Below, piece by piece: positions 10,801 through 40,384 of a stretch of DNA of 64,000 nt. Positions within the stretch are counted from its first letter, which is position 1, and every line of letters begins with the position of its first letter. The notes beneath the pieces were generated by a model. It did not search any database. It saw nothing but the letters and a program-made list of their open reading frames with translations, and had not been told where the DNA came from. The position numbers were made by a program, and so were the translations under genes. This stretch comes from a virus, in the IMG/VR virus record IMGVR_UViG_3300009597_000014, positions 10,835 through 74,834 of that record. One strand, written 5' to 3'.

Positions 10801-13477
10801 TGCCATCGAACAGCAGACCCATGGTTTCTTCAGTGGAGCCGATCGATATTTTTATGATAATATGCAGGCATTAACTCAAAGTGCCATTCAGAAATCAAAC
10901 CAGGTTCTGGCAACCAGCAACAGCAAAGTAGCCCGTGCTGGAGCAAAACTTCTTAAAATTACTTCTCGAATAATTAATGAGAAATCCTCAACAGCTATAG
11001 CTCAGGGATTTGTTAATAACCTGGCCAAGCTAGATGGCCAATATGAGATCATGGCAATCGCCAATGACATCGTTCTTCGCACTGACGAGAACGCACCCAT
11101 CTACGACATGATTGCCGAAACCAAGGCCACTGCCGAACAGACCCGTCAACGTTATCGTGACGAGCTCCCCGAGGAACTGGCCTCTGAGTTCTCCCGTCCT
11201 CTGACCCAGGAGGAATGGACAGCCCAGCACAAAGTAGCCCAAACCGATATCGCTTCCCTGAAGGCCACCTACGGGGCCGCTGGAGCGGTTCGGATGATTT
11301 TCGATGCTGCATACAGGTCAGCGGAGATTCGTGCCAAGGAGGCCTTTATACGCGCCCAGGAAGGCACTCGGGCAGCGAAGATCCTTGAGAAGGCAAAGCA
11401 GCTTGCTGGCTATCTCAACACTGGGGAGCTTGGTCTCAACCTGTTGCCCAATACCTATGCGATTTCCAAGTTGAATGGTGAGGTTGGATTCAACCGATCG
11501 ACGCCTGATCCCCAGACCGAGAATGCTGTCGACGAGTTGGTAACCCTTTATGCCATCAGGGGCCTGAGCCAGGAAACCAAAGATACAATTATAAATCTTG
11601 GAAATGAGAACCAGAAGAATAAAGAAGGTCTTGAATTTGTATTTCATTATCTGGTTGGGCAGAGAAAAGACGAACTAGATAAGGCAAAAGCAACCCAGCT
11701 GGGTAAAAACAATTATTATAAAGGTGGTGGACTTCCCTCCGAGCAAGTAGGCAACGATTCCCTGGTCATCGAAAGTGATCGTGAGCACGCCAACATGCTC
11801 AAGAAGGGCTACGTCCATCAGGGTGCTTACACTGGTTCCTCTGCAGACCAAAATCTGACCCCGAGATCCTATTATTATTCACCCACTGCTGGATTAGCCC
11901 CCTATCGACAAGGCGTCATGCAGACGGTTCATGTGACAGCCTCTGGGATAGATCCCCAGACAGGCTACACGGTCGGTAGACTGATGGCTGGACGTATCGT
12001 CAATGGGCGAGAGATAGCCCAGGTCCAGCAACAGCTTAGGAACCAGGCAGGAACCAACGAGAACTTACGTCTGGTCTATGAAGACGATGGCTCTGTCATT
12101 GCCATGGAACGCATGGCGGATGTGAACAAGACCAACACGATCGAACGTAATACCAACCTATCCGAGATGATCGGCGCCTGGAGAGGTCGCCAAGTCGAAG
12201 AGATATTCGCCACCGAGATCAACCGAGCCCTGGTGAACGAACTTTATACGATCTGGGAGAAAGCCAGACAGGAAGGTCGAACCAATGAGTTCGTGAATAT
12301 ATTTACGTCAACCGATCCAGTGATCCAGAACACTGCCAAGTTGGTTCCCAACTTGATGCGGGATCATATCAAGCAGAAATTTGGCAGAGATACTTTCATG
12401 GTTCATCGATCCATGGCCTTGAATGCTCTCGGTGATCGGCAGGCCTCAGTGAGCGATATGTTCACCGGGGAGACACGTTGGAACCCTGCAGTGCAGAAGC
12501 GCTTCGAGACCATAGCCATTGGTTTGTTTGGAAACAGCGCCTATAATGGACTGGTTAATACAGAGAGAACTGTACAAAATATCATAACAAATGTGAAATA
12601 TAATATCATTGTAAAGTCAGTGATTATTCCTGCAGGAAACATTATGTCCAACTTCGGACAACTTCTCAACCGGGATGTTCCCTTGCGGGATATCCTGACA
12701 GGAGTCCCCAAAAAGATCATTGAAATCAACAGCTACATTAAGTCCAGGAACCAGGAGATAAAACTCGAGGCCCAACTGCGAGCAGCCGAAGGCAAGGGTG
12801 ACCTCAATGCCATTCGCAAGCTCAAGGACCGACTCCAGGCAATGGAGGATTCTTACAAACGCCTGAGCATTTATCCTCTGATTAAGGCGGGGGAATTCTC
12901 AACTATTTCTAATGGAAATGTAACCGCCGAGGATCTTGCACTTGCTGATGGCAAGTGGTCCAATTTCATGGACAAGCTCATCGCCAAGATCCCCGACGGT
13001 CCTCTACGCACGACAGCCAGGTATGGCCTGGTGACGCGCGACACTGCACTGTTCCAAGCCCTTGCAAAAGCAGTGCAGTATGGGGATTTCGTAGGCAAAG
13101 CCATTCTTTATGACGACCTGACCAAGCGACAGAAGGTAGCCAACAAGGAAGCTATCGCCACCGTGAACCAGGCATTCGTGCCCTATAATAATCTGTCAGG
13201 TAGGGGACGACATTATCTGGAAAGCCTTGGGCTTCTCTGGTTCTACAACTACAAGCTGCGTGTCATGAAGGAGAGCGTGTACCTGCTTCGACATCATCCA
13301 TTCAGGGCATTGGTCATGATGGGTATTCCAGGTCTGAACGGCATCGATTCGCCACTGGATAGCAACTTCCTGACAAACCTGATTAATGGAAGGCTTGGTG
13401 CTTCGGTTGGACCTGAGATGGCATTCGATAGCTGGACACTTAATCCCTGGGTTAATGGATTCAGAACTGCTTTTTAA
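1823..13477 (+). CDS. Virion-encapsidated RNA polymerase (N4 gp50 homologue), 3884 aa
   Basis: Size; no Cys seen; T7-superfamily motifs SIGRLQM, EADGKTNG (A), RGFVKNPLTITVYGSG (B), VFDG (C); C-terminal HELIH zincin-like motif. Confidence 0.97.
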   Translation: MAATSNTLQRLLDPISARDLDFTARDEAYKRQTMELVTTPPPAPLARVLEPVPTPVSEVPRRVTPADLQALDPWSVPLGATEAPKPQFGAPTPEDNPFDVPFQAPERILHPRLKLESDLQEIRDYSATPETIALYTLAKHKGNDFIKNNAVIQDYDNLTSDQFRVKYGTDVYRNLVALQIAGRPITGMAQTTSGLGETVQDLAVHGASTVVSGTADLAAMVQANNPLSKPVTDMVGKLFGVDNLNDKIAFEVSQLGHAVSDAMVSHGQSSTSEQQTIVAHFQNVADHIDQAAKYKKDLRTEGEMVANLRYGGAQVVDGALQLYNNPKHLENLTSQAIGSLVTLGPMTKGLSYVGKGLAATKYGAKLAPYAEGAAFNTAVGLQEAGGAYGEVIQRVMALDHPTLMRQSEGYRDLINQGYSERDAKVQLAMDAAQIAAPTAFGTGFVTSKLAPREFELGILGQGAKKTLAQSLRALPGTAAREFIEETPQSAAGQFAANLALQQTVDPFQPLGENVAEVGIQGGIASLGVGPILKGPGIIAKTLAAPVKLGYEQLAKRAGRVKAANESSSNVSTENISEDIQSVAKNSGSLAEGLRSLVEESETARQVAEQAKDQTDQVQGALDQVQRSQEQDTGANPPAPLTDVAAVIDVSETAPVITTPEARAQEAEEFIQKVETSATLRKEDIETLPSQLTKKLTDLQSKLDQTLTRFDAMIEMAKIVEDPNASVSDQASAAVFIADIINQNRDLFSGELPAFLQNTPHDNPHFKALIDTFRNLQRMEKNPMIADAIRFAQDELNIPDVDLDTVGSTSPEGLQTIRNVIGAATHAPARLNENVANQVLRQADEGKAKISPEELATIRNALALQVEAAKAQPKVEQVEVKPGPAAEALSTQAPTPAAAPKPRAKTTTQDFVAKQIETEGGDEKHQLSLRQHVSEINRAIKNKKPRLIKEKIQNLVDFAKSQTNKVIALNESIAKGDGSNAPYQAINSKGKFYTNKTGVGVKLGNPGSENFARQVHKEATSLVDLANQIINQHPEAKIEPLPTPPALNLPEEGSTTTQQETPPSATTSKTAATEQLEPPSVPATGGVPGAIDTTAPTTQTSAPAELTPEEKAEQKKLQDPKQTSDDELINRVKFFDRQEKQSKTKTLSPNATKSLKAIHEEIARRKALKIEPVKEETPPSVTEPATSATGQSRFTPEELRSDPEWEQDESLSDEMDRIEKKEKLTPDDEATIEALQKEMDRRYDEAIIQEEQEQTPPVEQIVEQTPTKKVIKSKRKPKTVAKSLQDLSIVLETKPTEPETKPKLEPVEEAVEEPVGAEPESIPLDQAYENLAESSEGNYFLKAYKRGKKIGSRLMTVKSPLAAMRKALSGQTALAQFAGGDARLPRRLPIWQEFLTDTANKITTNFKTRMYGIINSKVDENGNPKTSFLDLMDQGSPYNRYMNYKTMNLLEKVDGVYGLNKQLLESGVLAAMDWLLNVQDRTVNHSAERLAAVLGVDENLIEQRTLDEWNRGIGLSEAKRSLAQQLKKFWDVQDNKDVSETYVQGVAEAMALELLVAMEQTGLLKNGEFAEPTLTEKTYNMVYFDRRSDDDKALLNKLGEERNTISDLALVDKLRSGRSVGEPITEVPQHLLYNPNVSTTNQQKKAAGNVQATRHMTNMPMVNFMRALGLQNYINALGGRLTDPRVTDPEKTNINDARSKAGANLQLTNSYNGMLAQVAEVEAYSERTGIPVSEVPTFFEYAVLSIGRLQMRGLFNGQADKLARNIVTPVRAKIDLSQPGSRKFSDFMQAIGQGLGAKPESKSRRAVTAAAFEKLKFYRPIIDGIKVHLRDEKKGSLSQDTIDALVNLAPEDKLTDHGLQSLLDYARYEVLRESNHGDLTRFESWNFLEADGKTNGPINALMLWAAGAITPRFLDLVNKGGMFFGANDKTLDQHGDTVDLYKASGNKASEKVGQLHAAIRDDNNPKVLAQFNAFRRIMTALNTNIVLKGDQIEISRGFVKNPLTITVYGSGANGIAIKATKELTEFIYQKLSESLQTGVVPGDLIYKDYPDNSFHDDLSLLLSRTPDISKDKKFGTYYFTRPVKHVAFDRKGKPGSDEFLKNFTFSKTEFDALRDNVQFFLTDPMVSAITDEVMKEIAPVIEAIQQATQIQSIVVRNMFRNKVFAKLADKQINPNKYPNYHKGDFLSQNELNEIFNSLKQFMAVIDTGTQRYQINSHESADVFAKATITYNGQSYNITMPESFARSLSGDMKAPIFMNTPNLAGVKAIPYLNIGSGDGQMMLHGMSIDIHRSDISRRTLPVFDGLNMPIDMILEYSRLINESVFKTWTQNSPMRAIAESFRTFAENRPIQQVLDPDNGLNQTIDDTILEMSKIEGGFKPEKLIDQTSMEMMINDLVRKLEDFAGDLEDRQQVYRETTQSIDQMSSGKGPHNVKGTGALILVPGMSNQEIAHAMEARRIELSNIRAGHRKTAQTAPAVALIPASTPVAQLTPAMQKVLALGTEDVSGTRVIQADQLPDVIRALGSTVDSQFARQLVKAIAKEYRLVFGTPTQLDNWERSNNVDRFQPGSNDNAMGKIDPVAKVILISNLVPETIIHELIHAATIDKVRAYYSNPRSLSQEDRDAIRRIEGLMNEWLTLDFTNNDEIIVNAHQMAQSSILGWMRKGVAENEPNKYMAEAINEFMAWTLSNQELRNKARTLKNSAFRILKDTLEALKAWFGKSLRVPNNLLAQLQFNTRILISTPTDLDNLKTDANSVTLFQSPTFGNSDRLTYFRERFKEKILTYINEGDPNTLEGYRQRYQRSNEIRAARQASRDLTIGFVRQFGDLRTMQAWATFYEMQVGLMTELQLNPNSLARMQELYDHVISKLEVTDFRINNDPNDQADEAQAQGKYDAIHGLLVKKTDPYGRSSLLSSFVSLAMSSDIFRGVLAKIDKPPTDKSTTTNTMDRILEDAGNASIDWLSLMASGEKSKAHNVQEAMDNLASAMIENVGDQRSAIEQQTHGFFSGADRYFYDNMQALTQSAIQKSNQVLATSNSKVARAGAKLLKITSRIINEKSSTAIAQGFVNNLAKLDGQYEIMAIANDIVLRTDENAPIYDMIAETKATAEQTRQRYRDELPEELASEFSRPLTQEEWTAQHKVAQTDIASLKATYGAAGAVRMIFDAAYRSAEIRAKEAFIRAQEGTRAAKILEKAKQLAGYLNTGELGLNLLPNTYAISKLNGEVGFNRSTPDPQTENAVDELVTLYAIRGLSQETKDTIINLGNENQKNKEGLEFVFHYLVGQRKDELDKAKATQLGKNNYYKGGGLPSEQVGNDSLVIESDREHANMLKKGYVHQGAYTGSSADQNLTPRSYYYSPTAGLAPYRQGVMQTVHVTASGIDPQTGYTVGRLMAGRIVNGREIAQVQQQLRNQAGTNENLRLVYEDDGSVIAMERMADVNKTNTIERNTNLSEMIGAWRGRQVEEIFATEINRALVNELYTIWEKARQEGRTNEFVNIFTSTDPVIQNTAKLVPNLMRDHIKQKFGRDTFMVHRSMALNALGDRQASVSDMFTGETRWNPAVQKRFETIAIGLFGNSAYNGLVNTERTVQNIITNVKYNIIVKSVIIPAGNIMSNFGQLLNRDVPLRDILTGVPKKIIEINSYIKSRNQEIKLEAQLRAAEGKGDLNAIRKLKDRLQAMEDSYKRLSIYPLIKAGEFSTISNGNVTAEDLALADGKWSNFMDKLIAKIPDGPLRTTARYGLVTRDTALFQALAKAVQYGDFVGKAILYDDLTKRQKVANKEAIATVNQAFVPYNNLSGRGRHYLESLGLLWFYNYKLRVMKESVYLLRHHPFRALVMMGIPGLNGIDSPLDSNFLTNLINGRLGASVGPEMAFDSWTLNPWVNGFRTAF

Positions 13478-35297: not shown

Positions 35298-36152
35298 TCA
35301 TTTTTTTGATTTCTTTCTATAATCATCATCATCGTCATCTTTGCCTTTGACGAGCTTGGCTAAACGGGCATCACCTTTAGATTTCTCCTCGGCTTCTTCC
35401 TCTTCAGCTTCAGCCTTTGCCTTGGCATCCGCTGCAGTCTTGGCCTTCTTGGAAGCTTTGGTATCTTCTTCCTCGTCGTCAGCCATGAGTAGAAGAGCAG
35501 CTGTCACAGTGACACCAGCCTCAGTTATATGGCCCACGTATTTATGGGCAATCCTGATGACGGTAGTGCCTGGAGCAACGCCTGTGACGACTCCAGCGGC
35601 ACTTACGGTGGCAATAGACGTATTGGCACTGACGAAGTCATTGTCTGCCACAGCAGACGCTACATCGCCTGGCTGAAGCTTTACAGCAAGGGTAGCTGTC
35701 GCAGCGACCACCATAGCTACGGGAGCACAGGTGATACCCGTTGAAAGCATGATTGGGCCATGGCGCTTGATTCGAATATTGGCCATGTCATGGATGCCAT
35801 GAGGAAACATGGATCCAGGCGTTGGGCCGCTATAAGCAGGGAGACCGTTTAGAGCTACAGGCGGTGCCACCCATCCAGTGGTGGGTGGTGTCGTAGTAGC
35901 TGGTGTTGCGAACAGACGTTTGGCGACAACCTCTCTGACGTGATGAAAAGCTGTGTGGTTGAGTCCATATTTGTGAAGCGGATCGGTTCCAGCAGCGTGG
36001 TCAACCGTGCCAAGGCTGGTGCCTGTACCCGGTAGCGTATCTGCACCAACAGCGACAAAGACATCAAATCCTGGCCTGATGGGAATTGGTTGACCACTGG
36101 GCAGCAGAGTAGTGGTGTCCATAGGACCAAGTTCCAGTTTATAAGTAGCCAT
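35298..36152 (-). CDS. Ig-like (Big_2) domain capsid decoration protein (N4 gp17-like) with charged tail
   Basis: FVSANTSIATVSAAGVVTGVAPGTTVI; RBS CAGGAG before ATG at 36152; follows RNAP II. Confidence 0.75.
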   Translation of the reverse strand: MATYKLELGPMDTTTLLPSGQPIPIRPGFDVFVAVGADTLPGTGTSLGTVDHAAGTDPLHKYGLNHTAFHHVREVVAKRLFATPATTTPPTTGWVAPPVALNGLPAYSGPTPGSMFPHGIHDMANIRIKRHGPIMLSTGITCAPVAMVVAATATLAVKLQPGDVASAVADNDFVSANTSIATVSAAGVVTGVAPGTTVIRIAHKYVGHITEAGVTVTAALLLMADDEEEDTKASKKAKTAADAKAKAEAEEEEAEEKSKGDARLAKLVKGKDDDDDDYRKKSKK

Positions 36153-36164
36153 TTGCAATCTCCT

Positions 36165-36207
36165 GAAAAAATAAGGGCGCCGCTCCCTAAGAGTCAGGAG
36201 CGACGCC
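36165..36207 (-). terminator. Terminator after RNAP II subunit 2
   Basis: GGCG.CGCTCC/GGAGCG.CGCC stem then TTATTTTTT on the - strand. Confidence 0.65.
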
Positions 36208-36213
36208 ATGTTA

Positions 36214-37009
36214 TCAGGAAAGTGCGTAGTTGGTAACTCGAATATCAGCAGGTAGTGTCGGATCGATCTTGCCAGCTGTGATATGTTTTCCGGTGATCTG
36301 ACCAACGATCGAACCAAGGATCTTGGATTCAGCTATTTCAGCCAGCAGATTATTATATTGCTGTCTGAGATCATTTCCATGGTTCGGAAGGCATCTGAAA
36401 CAGTCATGGATGGAGATAACCTGGAATGGTTTATCTGGTAATGACCTGAGTAATTGTCTAATAATTTCAGGATTAACCAATCCCATATTATCAATGTTCA
36501 GATACTCCAGGATCCTAGCTGATAAGAATCCTGTCATTTGGTAGTTGATCCAGAGCTGTTGAACGAGCCTGTCGTTCTCGTATCTGGATCGGTGTCCTCC
36601 TCCACCTACGAATGCTAAACCCTGCAGTTTCTTGATCTTGATTGGATCGTAGTTACACCTTCTGTTCATTTCCCTGACGATCATGCCATCAATGGAATGA
36701 ACCATGTTGGCTCCCAATGAGCGTCCTCCCTTGATGGGCATGTTCTCATTGAAGATAACGTCATATGGTTCATCCAGGAATGTGACAGGTTCTATTATCT
36801 GACCCATTACCTTAACTTTCACATGGAAATTATCAGGTAATGTCCATTGATTAATCAGGGCTGTCGGATCCCAGATACCAAGCATGGTCTCATTGATTTC
36901 CCATGCTCCTGGTGCATTCTCCTGGATTGTCTCATAGAAGGTCCTGAGCAGTTCACCCTCGCCGAATATCTGCTTGGGTGTGGCTGTGGACCCATAGAAC
37001 GCTGTCATA
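36214..37009 (-). CDS. RNA polymerase II subunit 2 (N4 gp16-like), exon 2
   Basis: MTAFYGS (end of motif B), ANMVHSIDG, SIHDCF (motif C), NYALS end. Confidence 0.92.
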
Positions 37010-37786
37010 CAATATGTTCAACAGAAGTCGTTAATTTCTGCCAGCAGCTTTACCTGCATCTCCATGTTTCCAAGGAGTTCGGACTATATCATAATCCCGA
37101 AGGATCCCGTGCGCTTCGGTCCACTTGGACCTACTCTACTAGGTTCGATTTTCATCGCCGTTCGATAGTCTCTGCACCTTCTGATATGCCAAGATATCTT
37201 CACACATACTCAGGAAAATTTCAGTTGCCATTTCACCTTTGGCTCTGTTTGCAGCCCATGAGAGCCACTGTACATTACCCTCAATATATCCTTTTCCTGG
37301 TTCAATTTGATCCAAAGATAAGGAATGCATTGAGTCTTTTTCTAGTGAAAGGCTAACTCCTGTTAGATTACATAAACCTTTTTGAGATTTATATACACTA
37401 TACAGATAGTTATCTGTTAATTCTGGTAAAGGTCGTTTAAGTTTTACACATCTACTTTTCGCATCTTTTAATTTATGACGAATAGTAGACATTAAAACTC
37501 TATCTTCTAGTGGAATTAATTTAATTCTACCAGTACCTTGATAACCAGGATTTCTTTTCCTGAATTCTTTTGCATAATCATTATTACATGATTTGCAATA
37601 AGTGTGGTGGTTTTGCCTTGTAATAGCAAAACATATGAGATCTTTGATTTCACCACAACGTATGCATAGCTTGGTTTGCATAGAAAGCTCCTAAGTTGCT
37701 TTCTACGTATCAGCTTGGCTCATGATTGTCCACAAGGGATGTTCCATGAGTTCACACGGTTTAAAGGCGACCATGACTAGTGGTTA
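37010..37786 (-). mobile_element. Group I self-splicing intron (777 nt) in RNAP II subunit 2
   Basis: Exon end AGGCGAU pairs with IGS GUCGCCU with U-G at the splice site; R element CAGAGACUA; S element GAUAUAGUCC; terminal G at 37010; splicing restores KQAI-MTAFYGS, 400 aa. Confidence 0.92.
37139..37681 (-). CDS. Intron-encoded HNH-type homing endonuclease
   Basis: N-terminal CxxC..CxxC; C..TG...SLDQI...KGY..GNV.......N.AKG; 3' end runs into the intron core. Confidence 0.8.
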   Translation of the reverse strand: MQTKLCIRCGEIKDLICFAITRQNHHTYCKSCNNDYAKEFRKRNPGYQGTGRIKLIPLEDRVLMSTIRHKLKDAKSRCVKLKRPLPELTDNYLYSVYKSQKGLCNLTGVSLSLEKDSMHSLSLDQIEPGKGYIEGNVQWLSWAANRAKGEMATEIFLSMCEDILAYQKVQRLSNGDENRT

Positions 37787-38193
37787 ATCGCCTGCTTGGT
37801 CTTTTTCCGGTCTATTTTCGCATTTGAGCCTAGTTTCTTGGCCATAGTGTTATAGATGGAGATGTATGCGTCTTCGCGGTGGCCCGTGTCGATGACATTG
37901 CAGAGACTGGCGGCTTGTCTGTCGCAGGATAGAGCCGCCAGGATCTGTATGCCGGAACAGGTGGCATCCAAACTGATTGGATACCCACACATCTTTCCTT
38001 CCTTGGCTTTTTCCCAAGCGACTATCCCAGCATAAAAAAGCGCTGGCTCTTCAGCCTTTGGAACCAGAGAATGAAGCTGTCCCTCATTCTCATCGAACCA
38101 AGAAAGACGATCATTCCAATTAGCCTTGTCGAGGCCAAAGTTACTAGCAATATCTATTTTGAGATATTGCTGACCTGTAAATGTTTGTAGCAT
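37787..38193 (-). CDS. RNA polymerase II subunit 2 (N4 gp16-like), exon 1
   Basis: FTG.QYLKIDIA.NFGLDK, LDATCSGIQ (motif A), R..TKQA (start of motif B). Confidence 0.92.
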
Positions 38194-38202
38194 GATAGCT
38201 CC

Positions 38203-38409
38203 TTAATAGCCGGGTATTTTCCGGCGGGTTAATTCTTTCTCCTCCTTGTCGAAGAGAATGAACAGTGTGTAGTCCTCTGGTTCACCAAAGTCTGATGCCC
38301 AGATTTCCATCCTTCCAGCCAGAGCCAGGAGATCTGGTTCGAATCCTGGACCCAGAGGCGGTTTAGCCACCATGGATTCATAGTTTGCACTTTGTTCCAT
38401 CAGGTACAT
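38203..38409 (-). CDS. Hypothetical protein
   Basis: Start reassigned to MYLMEQ (TAATG overlap). Confidence 0.55.
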   Translation of the reverse strand: MYLMEQSANYESMVAKPPLGPGFEPDLLALAGRMEIWASDFGEPEDYTLFILFDKEEKELTRRKIPGY

Positions 38410-38783
38410 TATCCTGCATCTCCATAGGTTTGCGTGCATGCAAGACCTACGTGTTGACCACCGGTCATTCCACAGAGGCCGCATTTGTTTTCCAGCTTGG
38501 CTGCTGCCTCGAGGAGCAGATCTCCATGGCAGGCCAATGGCTTGCAATAGCAGACCAGATGCTTGCCTTTGAGAGGCTCGAGATCCAGGTGAGGCAACAC
38601 ATGGACACGGAACATCTCGATGGATCGTTCTCTGCTTTCAGTGAAATACAGTGCCTTGCTGTTGGGATTATGTGAGTAGGGATTTCCCCAAGGAGAACCT
38701 CTGCCGACATATACGGCATCATTAGGAGCCGTGTTATGTTTCTTATTATGGACTCTTGGTTTAGGATTTCTAGGAGTTGTCAT
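38409..38783 (-). CDS. DUF4326 family protein
   Basis: VYVGRGSPWGNPY...L.GK.L.CYCKPLACHGD.L. Confidence 0.85.
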   Translation of the reverse strand: MTTPRNPKPRVHNKKHNTAPNDAVYVGRGSPWGNPYSHNPNSKALYFTESRERSIEMFRVHVLPHLDLEPLKGKHLVCYCKPLACHGDLLLEAAAKLENKCGLCGMTGGQHVGLACTQTYGDAG

Positions 38784-38968: not shown

Positions 38969-39153
38969 TTTGTTACCTCTTGAAGTGCTTTTATTATGAA
39001 GAGCTCGATTAAACGGGCTGCTTCTTCGAATTTCTCCTCATCACCACGACAGACTCTGTGAAACAAGGAAGTTAATGCAGGTACAGGCTTTCCATCCACC
39101 AAGGTAGTTGGATCCTGGGTATGAAGTAGAATTTGTTGGATTTGCTCATTCAT
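38965..39153 (-). CDS. Hypothetical protein
   Basis: ATGA-coupled. Confidence 0.55.
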   Translation of the reverse strand: MNEQIQQILLHTQDPTTLVDGKPVPALTSLFHRVCRGDEEKFEEAARLIELFIIKALQEVTK

Positions 39154-39959
39154 TTTGTTATCTCCTGATTGGCAAATTCTACCACTGCTTTATTCCAGCA
39201 TGCTGCCTGATAATTAACATGATATCCTTGGCAATATGTCCTGCCTCGTTTATCATATTTATGGGTGAGCCAGAATTCACCCTCATTGGATAATCCCAGA
39301 TGATTAAGAACATCATGGGCTGTCCGGTCATATTTTTCGAAGGCTTTCACCCTCTTCTTGTATTCCTCGATGTCTTCGTCCTGCTTGGGCTTGTCGAGGT
39401 GTCTCCATTTGTTCTTGATGGTGGTAGCTACCTGCTGGTTCAACCTGAATTTGATTCTGTTTAGGCTATTTAAGTGATCCAGGCAGACATCCTCATCATG
39501 GTGATTATGTCTTAGAATCACTGAGTTATGACTCGTGTAATAACCCGTGTCATGATTAGTCCTCAATATCCTTGGTTCCACGACCATAGGCAGTGGATAT
39601 TGATACCGATCGATGTCGTCCTGCACGTCTTGACTGATGTCCCATCTAACGATGAACTGTTTCTGGATGGGGCTCCAGTTGGCCAGATCTGCCCGTACAG
39701 CAGCATCTAGGGCATTGGCTGTCCGTTGTGGGTCTCCATCAAAATGTCTCATCAGGATGCCTGCCATGGTTGGCAGAGTAGCTCTCTTGTGAAGAGCCAT
39801 CTGAACCAGGAAGTCGAATCCGAACTCCATATCGATCTTGTGCTCGATCATGTGAGCCTTGAAGTCGAATTCCTTCTCCGATTCGAAGTCGTCTCGTATG
39901 CGAGTGAACAGCTGGTTCTTGTGGAACAGCTGCTCGATAGAGATTTGAAACTCAAGCAT
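39150..39959 (-). CDS. RNA polymerase II subunit 1 (N4 gp15-like), 269 aa
   Basis: YQYPLPMVVEP, D.CLDHLN, THKYDKRGRTYCQGYHVN (DxxGR); RBS AAGGAG before 39959. Confidence 0.92.
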   Translation of the reverse strand: MLEFQISIEQLFHKNQLFTRIRDDFESEKEFDFKAHMIEHKIDMEFGFDFLVQMALHKRATLPTMAGILMRHFDGDPQRTANALDAAVRADLANWSPIQKQFIVRWDISQDVQDDIDRYQYPLPMVVEPRILRTNHDTGYYTSHNSVILRHNHHDEDVCLDHLNSLNRIKFRLNQQVATTIKNKWRHLDKPKQDEDIEEYKKRVKAFEKYDRTAHDVLNHLGLSNEGEFWLTHKYDKRGRTYCQGYHVNYQAACWNKAVVEFANQEITK

Positions 39960-40114
39960 GGATTTCTCCTTTACTGGTTCGATTGTTTTCATGGGTGGCG
40001 GTAGTAATGGGACTATCGGAGGCAATGAAAAAGGCTTCCGAGTTTCCTCTAGAAGCCTTAATTCATGAACCAGGATAATGCCGAGTTGGAGTATTTTAAT
40101 AATAGCTCCTACAT

Positions 40115-40384
40115 TCATGTGATCTCCCGATATTTCTCCAACAGTTTCCTGAGTTTATGTTCATCGAAACCAGGTGAAAGATAATCAGACCCTTCAGGTC
40201 CGAATCTGATACCTGCTGTTATTTCCTTATTACCTGGGAGGATATAGGCGTCGAGTTTGTCTCCATATTGGAACCAGCGAGAAATAGAATCTGGTCCATG
40301 TGGGTAACACTCGGCCAGCTCCTCTAGCTGGACATATGTGATTTCATCCTTCCAGGGATTATCTTCATGCCAGTGGGTAATCAT
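40115..40384 (-). CDS. Hypothetical protein
   Basis: Coupled ORF. Confidence 0.55.
   Translation of the reverse strand: MITHWHEDNPWKDEITYVQLEELAECYPHGPDSISRWFQYGDKLDAYILPGNKEITAGIRFGPEGSDYLSPGFDEHKLRKLLEKYREIT

Follow-up and report, generated by a model that had tools for sequence, protein, structure and literature searches.

An insertion in the middle RNA polymerase gene of an N4-like phage is very likely a group I intron with a nuclease gene, placed inside active-site motif B

For the element described here, an insertion in RNAP2, the gene for the catalytic large subunit of the middle RNA polymerase (RNAP) of an N4-like phage, the closest counterpart with demonstrated splicing comes from the G7C-like N4 coliphages N4G2 and Sz33. 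Their gene 16 carries an insertion of ~800 bp that is spliced in infected cells, as documented by reverse transcription polymerase chain reaction with a sequenced junction, by full-length protein obtained from the interrupted gene and by mass spectrometric detection of the junction peptide QAVMTAFYGSEAK (Babenko et al., 2019, bioRxiv 10.1101/542787). The interrupted layout has been in GenBank since 2014, with Achromobacter phage JWAlpha. RNAP2 of JWAlpha and JWDelta was described as interrupted and the question was raised whether it is still functional (Wittmann et al., 2014, PMC3915230), and a homing endonuclease was noted inside RNAP2 of Pseudomonas phage ZC08 (Amgarten et al., 2017, PMC5418858), the insertion being called an intron in neither case. 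More generally, our literature search for introns in RNAP genes of the T7, phiKMV or N4 type returned, apart from 10.1101/542787, interruptions noted without the word intron; Shigella phage B2, considered as a further G7C-type gene 16 intron, proved to have a DNA polymerase intron. A functional precedent is found in the jumbo phage PhiPA3, where the intron-encoded HNH nuclease gp210 nicks the allele that lacks the intron in a co-infecting phage, to the competitive advantage of its own (Birkholz et al., 2024, PMC11620839). Here we analyse a stretch of 64,000 nucleotides (nt), positions 10,835 to 74,834 of the IMG/VR virus record IMGVR_UViG_3300009597_000014, hereafter the window, for which a first inspection of the letters (the original prediction) had proposed a group I intron with a homing endonuclease in motif B of RNAP2. 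That prediction took no intron to be known in an N4-type RNAP II, which does not hold given the splicing in vivo at the same motif-B peptide in N4G2 and Sz33 (10.1101/542787).

The phage is N4-like (Schitoviridae) and all genes around the insert lie on the minus strand. The insert separates the second from the third base of an Ile codon in RNAP2 (N4 gp16-type), at the slash in R-K-K-T-K-Q-A-I/M-T-A-F-Y-G, and we consider it very likely to be a group I intron with a nuclease open reading frame (ORF) inside active-site motif B. The parts concerned are, in window coordinates:

37787..38193, minus strand: RNAP2 exon 1, 407 nt; Pfam PF00940 at 2.2e-16, positions 2-137 of phrog_2051.
37010..37786, minus strand: very probable group I intron of subgroup IA type, 777 nt, starting UAACCAC and ending ...AUAUUG, with omega-G at 37010; RF00028 at 32.1 bits, helix model and covariation, same-site homologues.
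37139..37681, minus strand: intron ORF, 180 amino acids (aa), with an N-terminal Cys4 zinc ribbon and a putatively PacI-like His-Me (HNH-fold) domain, looped out of helix P6a; phrog_1035 at 2.5e-27, AlphaFold 2 (AF2) model, fold matches, family conservation.
36214..37009, minus strand: RNAP2 exon 2, 796 nt including the stop codon; positions 138-401 of phrog_2051, E 1e-91.

Exon 1 ends at 37787 with ...AAG CAG GCG AU, its last letter being the U of the split Ile codon AU/U, and exon 2 starts at 37009 with U AUG ACA GCG UUC UAU GGG, completing the Ile and continuing into M-T-A-F-Y-G; the gene is split precisely as originally read, ...AAG CAG GCG AT / T ATG ACA GCG TTC TAT GGG. One T is assignable to either junction, and only the boundary 37787/37786 satisfies both an exon-final U and an intron-final G, so that no other choice reconciles the reading frame with an exon-1 U and an omega-G. 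The RNAP2 ORFs at 37777-38193 and 36214-37008 abut exactly on the phrog_2051 profile (2-137 / 138-401), and homology to the catalytic domain of T7-like RNAPs is seen with PF00940 on exon 1 and with phrog_2051 on both exons. Joining the 407 and 796 nt yields a 400-aa RNAP2 in which RKKTKQAIMTAFYG forms residues 129-142 and the R-x3-K-x7-YG of motif B is intact. This product aligns without gaps to the uninterrupted 400-aa RNAP2 of the IMG/VR locus L009, with 301/400 identical positions and an identical junction, bearing out the 400-residue spliced protein with an intact motif B that had been proposed. Identity to the RNAP2 of isolates is below 60%.

Within the 777 nt, the elements of a group I core can be placed as follows, with the number of pairs showing compensatory changes among the homologues given where they were counted:

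37765..37793, minus strand: P1, exon AGGCGAU (37793-37787) with guide GUCGCCU (37771-37765) and a U·G pair at the splice site; 3/7 pairs compensatory.
37772..37777, minus strand: P10 guide strand GUCAUG, facing exon-2 UAUGAC (37009-37004); conserved, with G·U changed to A-U in JWAlpha and no double changes.
37753..37759, minus strand: P3 5' strand CCGUGUG, pairing with CGCACGG (37113-37107) in the P3/P7 pseudoknot; 3/7 pairs compensatory, 0 unpaired cells in 7 sequences.
37719..37750, minus strand: P4-P5 domain, P4 CUCAUGG/UCAUGAG around P5 UCC/GGA; RNAalifold and pair counts.
37708..37718, minus strand: 5' strands of P6 (CC) and P6a (CUGAUA), pairing with 37186-37177 (UAUCAG AA GG) across the ORF; 6/8 pairs compensatory, with the strands ~520 nt apart.
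37166..37174, minus strand: R element CAGAGACUA and P7 5' strand (G[A]GACUA); invariant in all homologues.
37118..37159, minus strand: P7.1 (GG CGAU GAAA AUCG AA CC; 37159-37142) and P7.2 (GGUCC AAGU GGACC; 37131-37118); compensatory in 5/6 and 2/5 pairs, respectively.
37081..37113, minus strand: P3 3' strand (37113-37107), P8 hairpin (37106-37093), S element GAUAUAGUCC and P7 3' strand (37090-37081).
37022..37077, minus strand: P9 (37077-37060), P9.1 (37057-37044) and P9.2 (37040-37022, with the conserved loop AUUAACGA); compensatory in 6/7, 2/4 and 4/5 pairs, respectively.

P1 with its U·G, P10, R, S and the terminal G had all been picked out in the original prediction, and each was found again where it had been placed. 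The U·G of P1 at the splice site is retained in the 5 close homologues, all 7 introns compared end in G, the R and S elements are invariant across homologues, and P8 is a different perfect hairpin in each of them. The P7.1/P7.2 insertion between the P7 5' and P3 3' strands is a hallmark of subgroup IA in the classification of Michel and Westhof, and the intron is of this type. An in-frame UAG in the P1 loop (37779-37777) ends exon-1 translation, and all 7 introns have an in-frame stop (UAG, UAA or UGA) at intron nt 8-10, so that ribosomes on exon 1 would leave before the core is reached. Readings as an intein or as a group II intron were considered and rejected, as every frame of the insert, taken relative to the exons, contains stops, and as group I core elements are present.

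We assessed the fold by covariation in an alignment of 7 mini-introns, from which the ORF interiors were removed and in which 9-nt exon flanks were kept, because MAFFT on the full-length inserts misplaced the naturally ORF-less copy at the IMG/VR locus L011. The pairs were counted on these trimmed sequences, with shift and shuffle controls, for a model of 71 pairs comprising P1, P10, P3, P4, P5, P6, P6a, P7, P7.1, P7.2, P9, P9.1 and P9.2. Standard pairs occupy 90.5% of the cells in the 7 sequences and 96.9% in the five closest, and 34 of the 71 modelled pairs show compensatory double changes; the unpaired cells come mostly from the two divergent Vibrio sequences, whose register differs locally. 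When the 3' partners were shifted by 1-3 columns, 30-38% of the cells were paired and 6-9 pairs were compensatory, and when the 3' letters were shuffled, 77.6% were paired with a mean of 17.6 and a maximum of 25 compensatory pairs. RNAalifold, unaided, recovered P1, P3, P4, P5, P6/P6a, P7.2, P8, P9 and P9.2, P7 being out of its reach because it forms a pseudoknot with P3. Particularly telling are P3, which has five different sequences across the alignment, all paired, and the guide, which tracks the exon from GGCGAU:GUCGCC in the window to GGCCGU:GCGGCC in Burkholderia phage HN02 and JWAlpha and GGCCAU:GUGGCC at loci L011 and L032. The predicted group I intron with a nuclease-like ORF in motif B, on whose splicing middle transcription would depend, is thereby supported and strengthened.

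Other N4-like phages carry related elements at this site. Phage records contain no megablast match to the locus; a blastn search for more distant similarity showed that the 3' half of the insert is akin to sequence found at the corresponding point in other N4-like genomes, and a three-gene layout, with an RNAP2 N-terminal piece, an 'endonuclease' and an RNAP2 C-terminal piece, is found in the records of Burkholderia phage vB_BpP_HN02, Vibrio phages pVco-5 and phi 1 and Achromobacter phage JWAlpha. Scanning IMG/VR with an exon-2 profile yielded 80 N4-like loci, 4/80 of which are interrupted in motif B (L011, L032, L058, which is JWAlpha, and L074). A survey of gp16 homologues for the same insertion site had been suggested, and HN02, JWAlpha, pVco-5, phi 1, L011 and L032 share the identical codon phase; their introns, all with G as the last letter, follow an exon 1 with a final U and split the codon preceding the motif-B Met after its second base. 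The copy in L011 (L011:3175-3499) is a natural ORF-less form of 325 nt that retains the whole structure at the same RNAP2 site; what remains of the ORF is its ribosome-binding site, the ATG, three codons followed by a stop and, joined to these, the 3' end, so that it looks like a deletion derivative of the kind expected late in a homing cycle. In the L032 contig, Rfam reports a tRNA match about 2 kb downstream of RNAP2 (L032:5594-5707, 42.9 bits, 114 nt for a 71-position model), possibly a tRNA that carries a long insertion.

Another occupied site is found 7 nt further downstream (...AUG ACC U/UAAC...), where L074 (approximately L074:2625-3505) and Acinetobacter phage XC38 (approximately L089:1640-2480) have a related intron with a homologous ORF, the guide being re-matched to the new exon (UGACCU:GGGUCA in both). 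In tblastn searches with the ORF product, close relatives were found in N4-like phages only (Burkholderia, Achromobacter, Vibrio and Acinetobacter XC38), and more distant ones in podoviruses of ~43 kb. Among the latter, the Autographiviridae Pectobacterium phage PPWS1 and Pseudomonas phage Drael01 contain, at the homologous position of the single-subunit RNAP gene, R-x3-K-x2-V/M-T-Y-V-Y-G, an insert with the same UAAC 5' end, a re-tuned guide, a related 3' end and a related ORF, and the arrangement in Klebsiella phage HF0522 is the same, perhaps offset by one base. The approximate positions of these introns are:

L090:2380-3090: intron in the RNAP gene of PPWS1.
L091:2420-3153: intron in the RNAP gene of Drael01.
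L092:2400-3200: intron in the RNAP gene of HF0522.

The records of all three phages annotate separate RNAP fragments, with exon 2 annotated from a downstream ATG in PPWS1 and HF0522. The patchy occurrence at one precise site, the two phage families, the +7 site and the ORF-less derivative form a pattern associated with mobility and suggest, as read from the sequences, a single intron family that exploits the conserved motif B in both Schitoviridae and Autographiviridae.

The intron ORF is preceded by AGGAG at 37692-37688 and matches a PHROG family labelled 'endonuclease VII' (2.5e-27), with no match of its product to Pfam, NCBIfam or PDB sequences. Its family has more than 100 cluster representatives, many of them on contigs of 72-76 kb, and a mean column identity of 49%; invariant in 42 aligned homologues are, among others, C6, C9, C29, C32, D124, G131, Y132, N136, N145, R146 and K148, and no histidine is. 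The AF2 model (predicted local distance difference test score, pLDDT, 92) matches almost exclusively HNH domains over residues 50-164 in Foldseek/VIA-align comparisons, with structural Z scores of 7.5 for PacI (residues 51-164, 110 aligned), 7.4 for the HNH restriction enzyme 4l0k, 5-6 for the HNH domain of Cas9 and 4.0 for T4 endonuclease VII; residues 1-38 match the zinc ribbon of Hpy99I. With all Z scores below 8, the predicted structure gives moderate support to a beta-beta-alpha-metal (HNH) fold, and to the fold only. At the position of the HNH general-base His, at the end of beta-1, the window has Gln and the 42 homologues have Q in 36, K in 4, C in 2 and H in none. PacI is an active His-Me enzyme that likewise lacks the His and in which a loop Tyr acts as base and Asp and Asn hold the metal (PMC5714182, PMC3384342, PMC4081073). 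The profile of the ORF family aligns to PacI residues 85-119 through D-[Q/R]...G-Y...N...N-R-x-K, and by this analogy the product is probably a PacI-like nuclease, with its Tyr presumably equivalent to that of PacI. The 'homing endonuclease' initially predicted is plausible: the HNH fold stands, whereas the canonical catalytic His is absent throughout the family and activity is argued by analogy with PacI.

The pre-mRNA would fold into P1-P10 around the P3/P7 pseudoknot, an external guanosine would attack after the U of the P1 U·G pair (37787/37786), and P10 would align exon 2, so that the exons join, the terminal G (37010) is released, and the Ile codon and an intact motif B are restored in the 400-aa protein. 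If the transcript stayed unspliced, exon-1 translation would stop three codons into the intron and no complete polymerase would be made, and middle transcription would therefore depend on the ribozyme. In co-infecting phages, the ORF product would most likely nick or cut those RNAP alleles that lack the intron, close to the insertion site, and repair of the cut allele would copy the intron in (homing).

Several observations weigh against this picture and need to be set beside the evidence above. Splicing in this phage is something we infer from DNA: the 24 metagenome runs that contain the stretch, from groundwater and freshwater sediment, include no RNA run. The experimentally spliced introns of N4G2 and Sz33 were compared with that of the window by the junction peptide only, which is the same, and we do not claim the same sequence family or insertion nucleotide. 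At gathering thresholds, Rfam finds no match in the window; of the covariance-model check that had been proposed, it stands that RF00028 is, in E-value mode, the sole match in the whole window (32.1 bits, E 2.3e-4 window-wide), but this score does not reach the curated threshold of 50 bits. Relatives score higher (49.8 bits, E 1e-9, for the ORF-less L011, 42.6 for L074, 38 for L089 and 36 for L002), and the shortfall is in keeping with the presence of a 543-nt ORF in P6a and of the P7.1/P7.2 insertion, the threshold being one of detection and not a structural criterion. P7, the G-binding helix, has the expected form with a bulged A (G[A]GACUA:UAGUCC) and is invariant in all sequences, so that covariation speaks neither for nor against it. 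P2 is absent between P1 and P3 in the window and its four closest relatives, where UUAAA alone separates the two helices, unlike in the Vibrio copies, L074 and XC38, which have a P2 hairpin; for this reason our assignment goes no further than the IA type. The last 14 codons of the ORF (37139-37186) overlie P6a', P6', the R element/P7 5' strand and P7.1, with the conserved ...KVQRLS protein ending encoded by the invariant R/P7 strand; ORF translation and ribozyme folding should therefore exclude each other, and the two should compete. On the side of the nuclease, the general-base His is missing from every family member, so that this is not a canonical HNH enzyme, and the link to PacI is weak, with a profile E of 0.054 and structural Z scores below 8.

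The alternative that survives best accepts splicing and denies mobility: the ORF product would be a dead HNH relic, or would have been re-used as a maturase or DNA-binding factor, with neither homing nor cutting of competitors. It draws on the general-base His missing in all 42 aligned homologues, on an ORF product that goes unmatched in Pfam, NCBIfam and PDB sequences, on the view that His-Me groups with neither the His nor a substitute are inactive (PMC5714182), and on the existence of the ORF-less L011, as expected late in a homing cycle. A relic would hardly be under the strong purifying selection seen across more than 100 clusters, with 49% mean column identity and invariant D124, G131-Y132, N136, N145, R146 and K148, and the invariant Tyr sits in a loop between two beta-strands, as in active PacI, with D-[Q/R]...G-Y...N...N-R-x-K common to both. 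The patchy spread over one precise site in Schitoviridae and Autographiviridae and over a second site 7 nt away further indicates recent mobility, and we regard an immobile intron as unlikely, if well short of negligible.

Far less probable is that the gene exists in pieces, with a free-standing nuclease gene inside RNAP2, no splicing, and fragments of 138 and 264 aa that are translated separately and form a three-piece polymerase together with RNAP1. A precedent for such an arrangement is the split NrdA of Aeromonas phage Aeh1, and N4 RNAP II is itself already a split T7-like enzyme. Phage 10Gb, in which an insertion into the DNA polymerase gene (gene 39) is not spliced, was reported to show exactly this outcome (Babenko et al., 2019, bioRxiv 10.1101/542787), and database annotations list three separate genes at loci such as ours, where exon 2 happens to start with ATG. 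This ATG, however, is the codon of the conserved motif-B Met rather than a newly created start, it lacks an upstream Shine-Dalgarno sequence, and the interruption lies within the helix of R-x3-K-x7-YG. Furthermore, a protein-only element would have no need of the ~230 nt of non-coding flank that is conserved with compensatory changes, nor would the ORF-less L011 be expected to keep the whole 325-nt structure, or the guide to follow the exon changes, those of the +7 site included.

That the insert is an assembly chimera or part of a defective genome, outside any viable phage, has next to no likelihood: the window is metagenomic DNA, but the insert is not an assembly artefact, because in four independent metagenome studies contigs run across the 5' or the 3' intron-exon boundary, both of which are thus covered, at 100% identity and without alternative joints, and plaque-forming isolates with the same arrangement exist (JWAlpha, phi 1, pVco-5, HN02 and XC38). 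A search for intron-less or ORF-less alleles in runs with 60-68% word share returned only fragmentary contigs identical to the window and no joints, which is uninformative as to their existence.

The polymerase partner and the genes next to the interrupted one complete the locus:

39150..40118, minus strand: RNAP1 (N4 gp15-type), the small subunit and partner of the interrupted gene, upstream of it; phrog_2166 'N4-like RNA polymerase', 1.2e-92.
38409-38783, minus strand: DUF4326 protein (PF14216, 9e-17), among small ORFs between RNAP1 and RNAP2.
35298-36317, minus strand: ORF of 339 aa directly downstream of RNAP2, rich in Thr, Pro and Ala in its middle and with a strongly charged Lys/Asp/Glu tail, in a place that in relatives is taken by structural or decoration proteins with Ig domains.

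Because the intron escapes the default Rfam threshold, this locus appears in the output of annotation pipelines and in several phage papers as a polymerase that is broken or made of three pieces. With a covariation-backed structure and exact splice sites, RNAP2 can be annotated as one 400-aa protein. That middle transcription would hang on a ribozyme and that the nuclease may act against intron-less competitors, as demonstrated for PhiPA3, are ideas that are not new in kind, and the window intron is a further example of a familiar mobile element, in a gene and at a site for which splicing is already documented in a preprint. New here are, on the evidence of sequence, the apparently related introns at the homologous site in RNAP genes of Autographiviridae and the second site 7 nt downstream. 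The points that merit further work are the His-less, PacI-like active site and the apparent spread across N4-like and T7-like polymerase genes at the same motif. We can put forward only tentatively, and with somewhat more doubt than confidence, that the ORF product is the first homing endonuclease of PacI type, with a loop Tyr in place of His, and that one intron family, by targeting the universally conserved motif B, moves between the RNAP2 of Schitoviridae and the homologous single-subunit RNAP of Autographiviridae, its guide re-tuned to the +7 site.

Among the known systems, the gene 16 intron of N4G2 and Sz33 shares with that of the window the RNAP II large-subunit gene, the same motif B (QAVMTAFYGSEAK), an internal nuclease-like ORF and a size of ~800 bp, and Rfam found nothing there either; it differs in residing in Enterobacteria phages rather than a groundwater and sediment phage, and 10.1101/542787 gives neither a covariation model nor a classification of the ORF. 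The introns of Achromobacter phages JWAlpha and JWDelta, Burkholderia phages vB_BpP_HN02/04/05 and Vibrio phages phi 1, pVco-5 and pVco-7 have a homologous ribozyme, an ORF product with 44-53% identity and the identical insertion phase, and all are annotated as three genes. In the Vibrio copies, unlike in the window, there is an additional P2 hairpin, P1 is shorter, and the Asp is followed by Lys and not by Gln.

Further away, the DNA polymerase introns of the T7-like Yersinia phages Berlin and Yepe2 and of T4-like Aeromonas phages, which we take to belong to subgroup IA2, show 70-77% nt identity to the 3' core (P7 to P9.2). They have the same general architecture and life style, but their host gene is a DNA polymerase and that of the window an RNA polymerase, and the introns of T7-like DNA polymerases carry canonical HNH endonucleases whereas the ORF of the window is PacI-like. 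The gp210 intron of PhiPA3 is likewise a group I intron with an HNH nuclease in an essential phage RNAP gene and serves as a functional model for what the element described here may do; its host gene belongs to the multisubunit, beta'-like virion RNAP of a nucleus-forming jumbo phage, gp210 has a canonical catalytic His (H82), and there is no sequence relationship between the two elements. PacI (PDB 3ldy/3m7k; His-Me finger group 20, PMC5714182) is the best structural match and, like the ORF product, has no catalytic His, but it is a restriction enzyme that stands alone, forms a homodimer and has two Cys4 zinc sites, and its sequence relationship to the ORF product is marginal.

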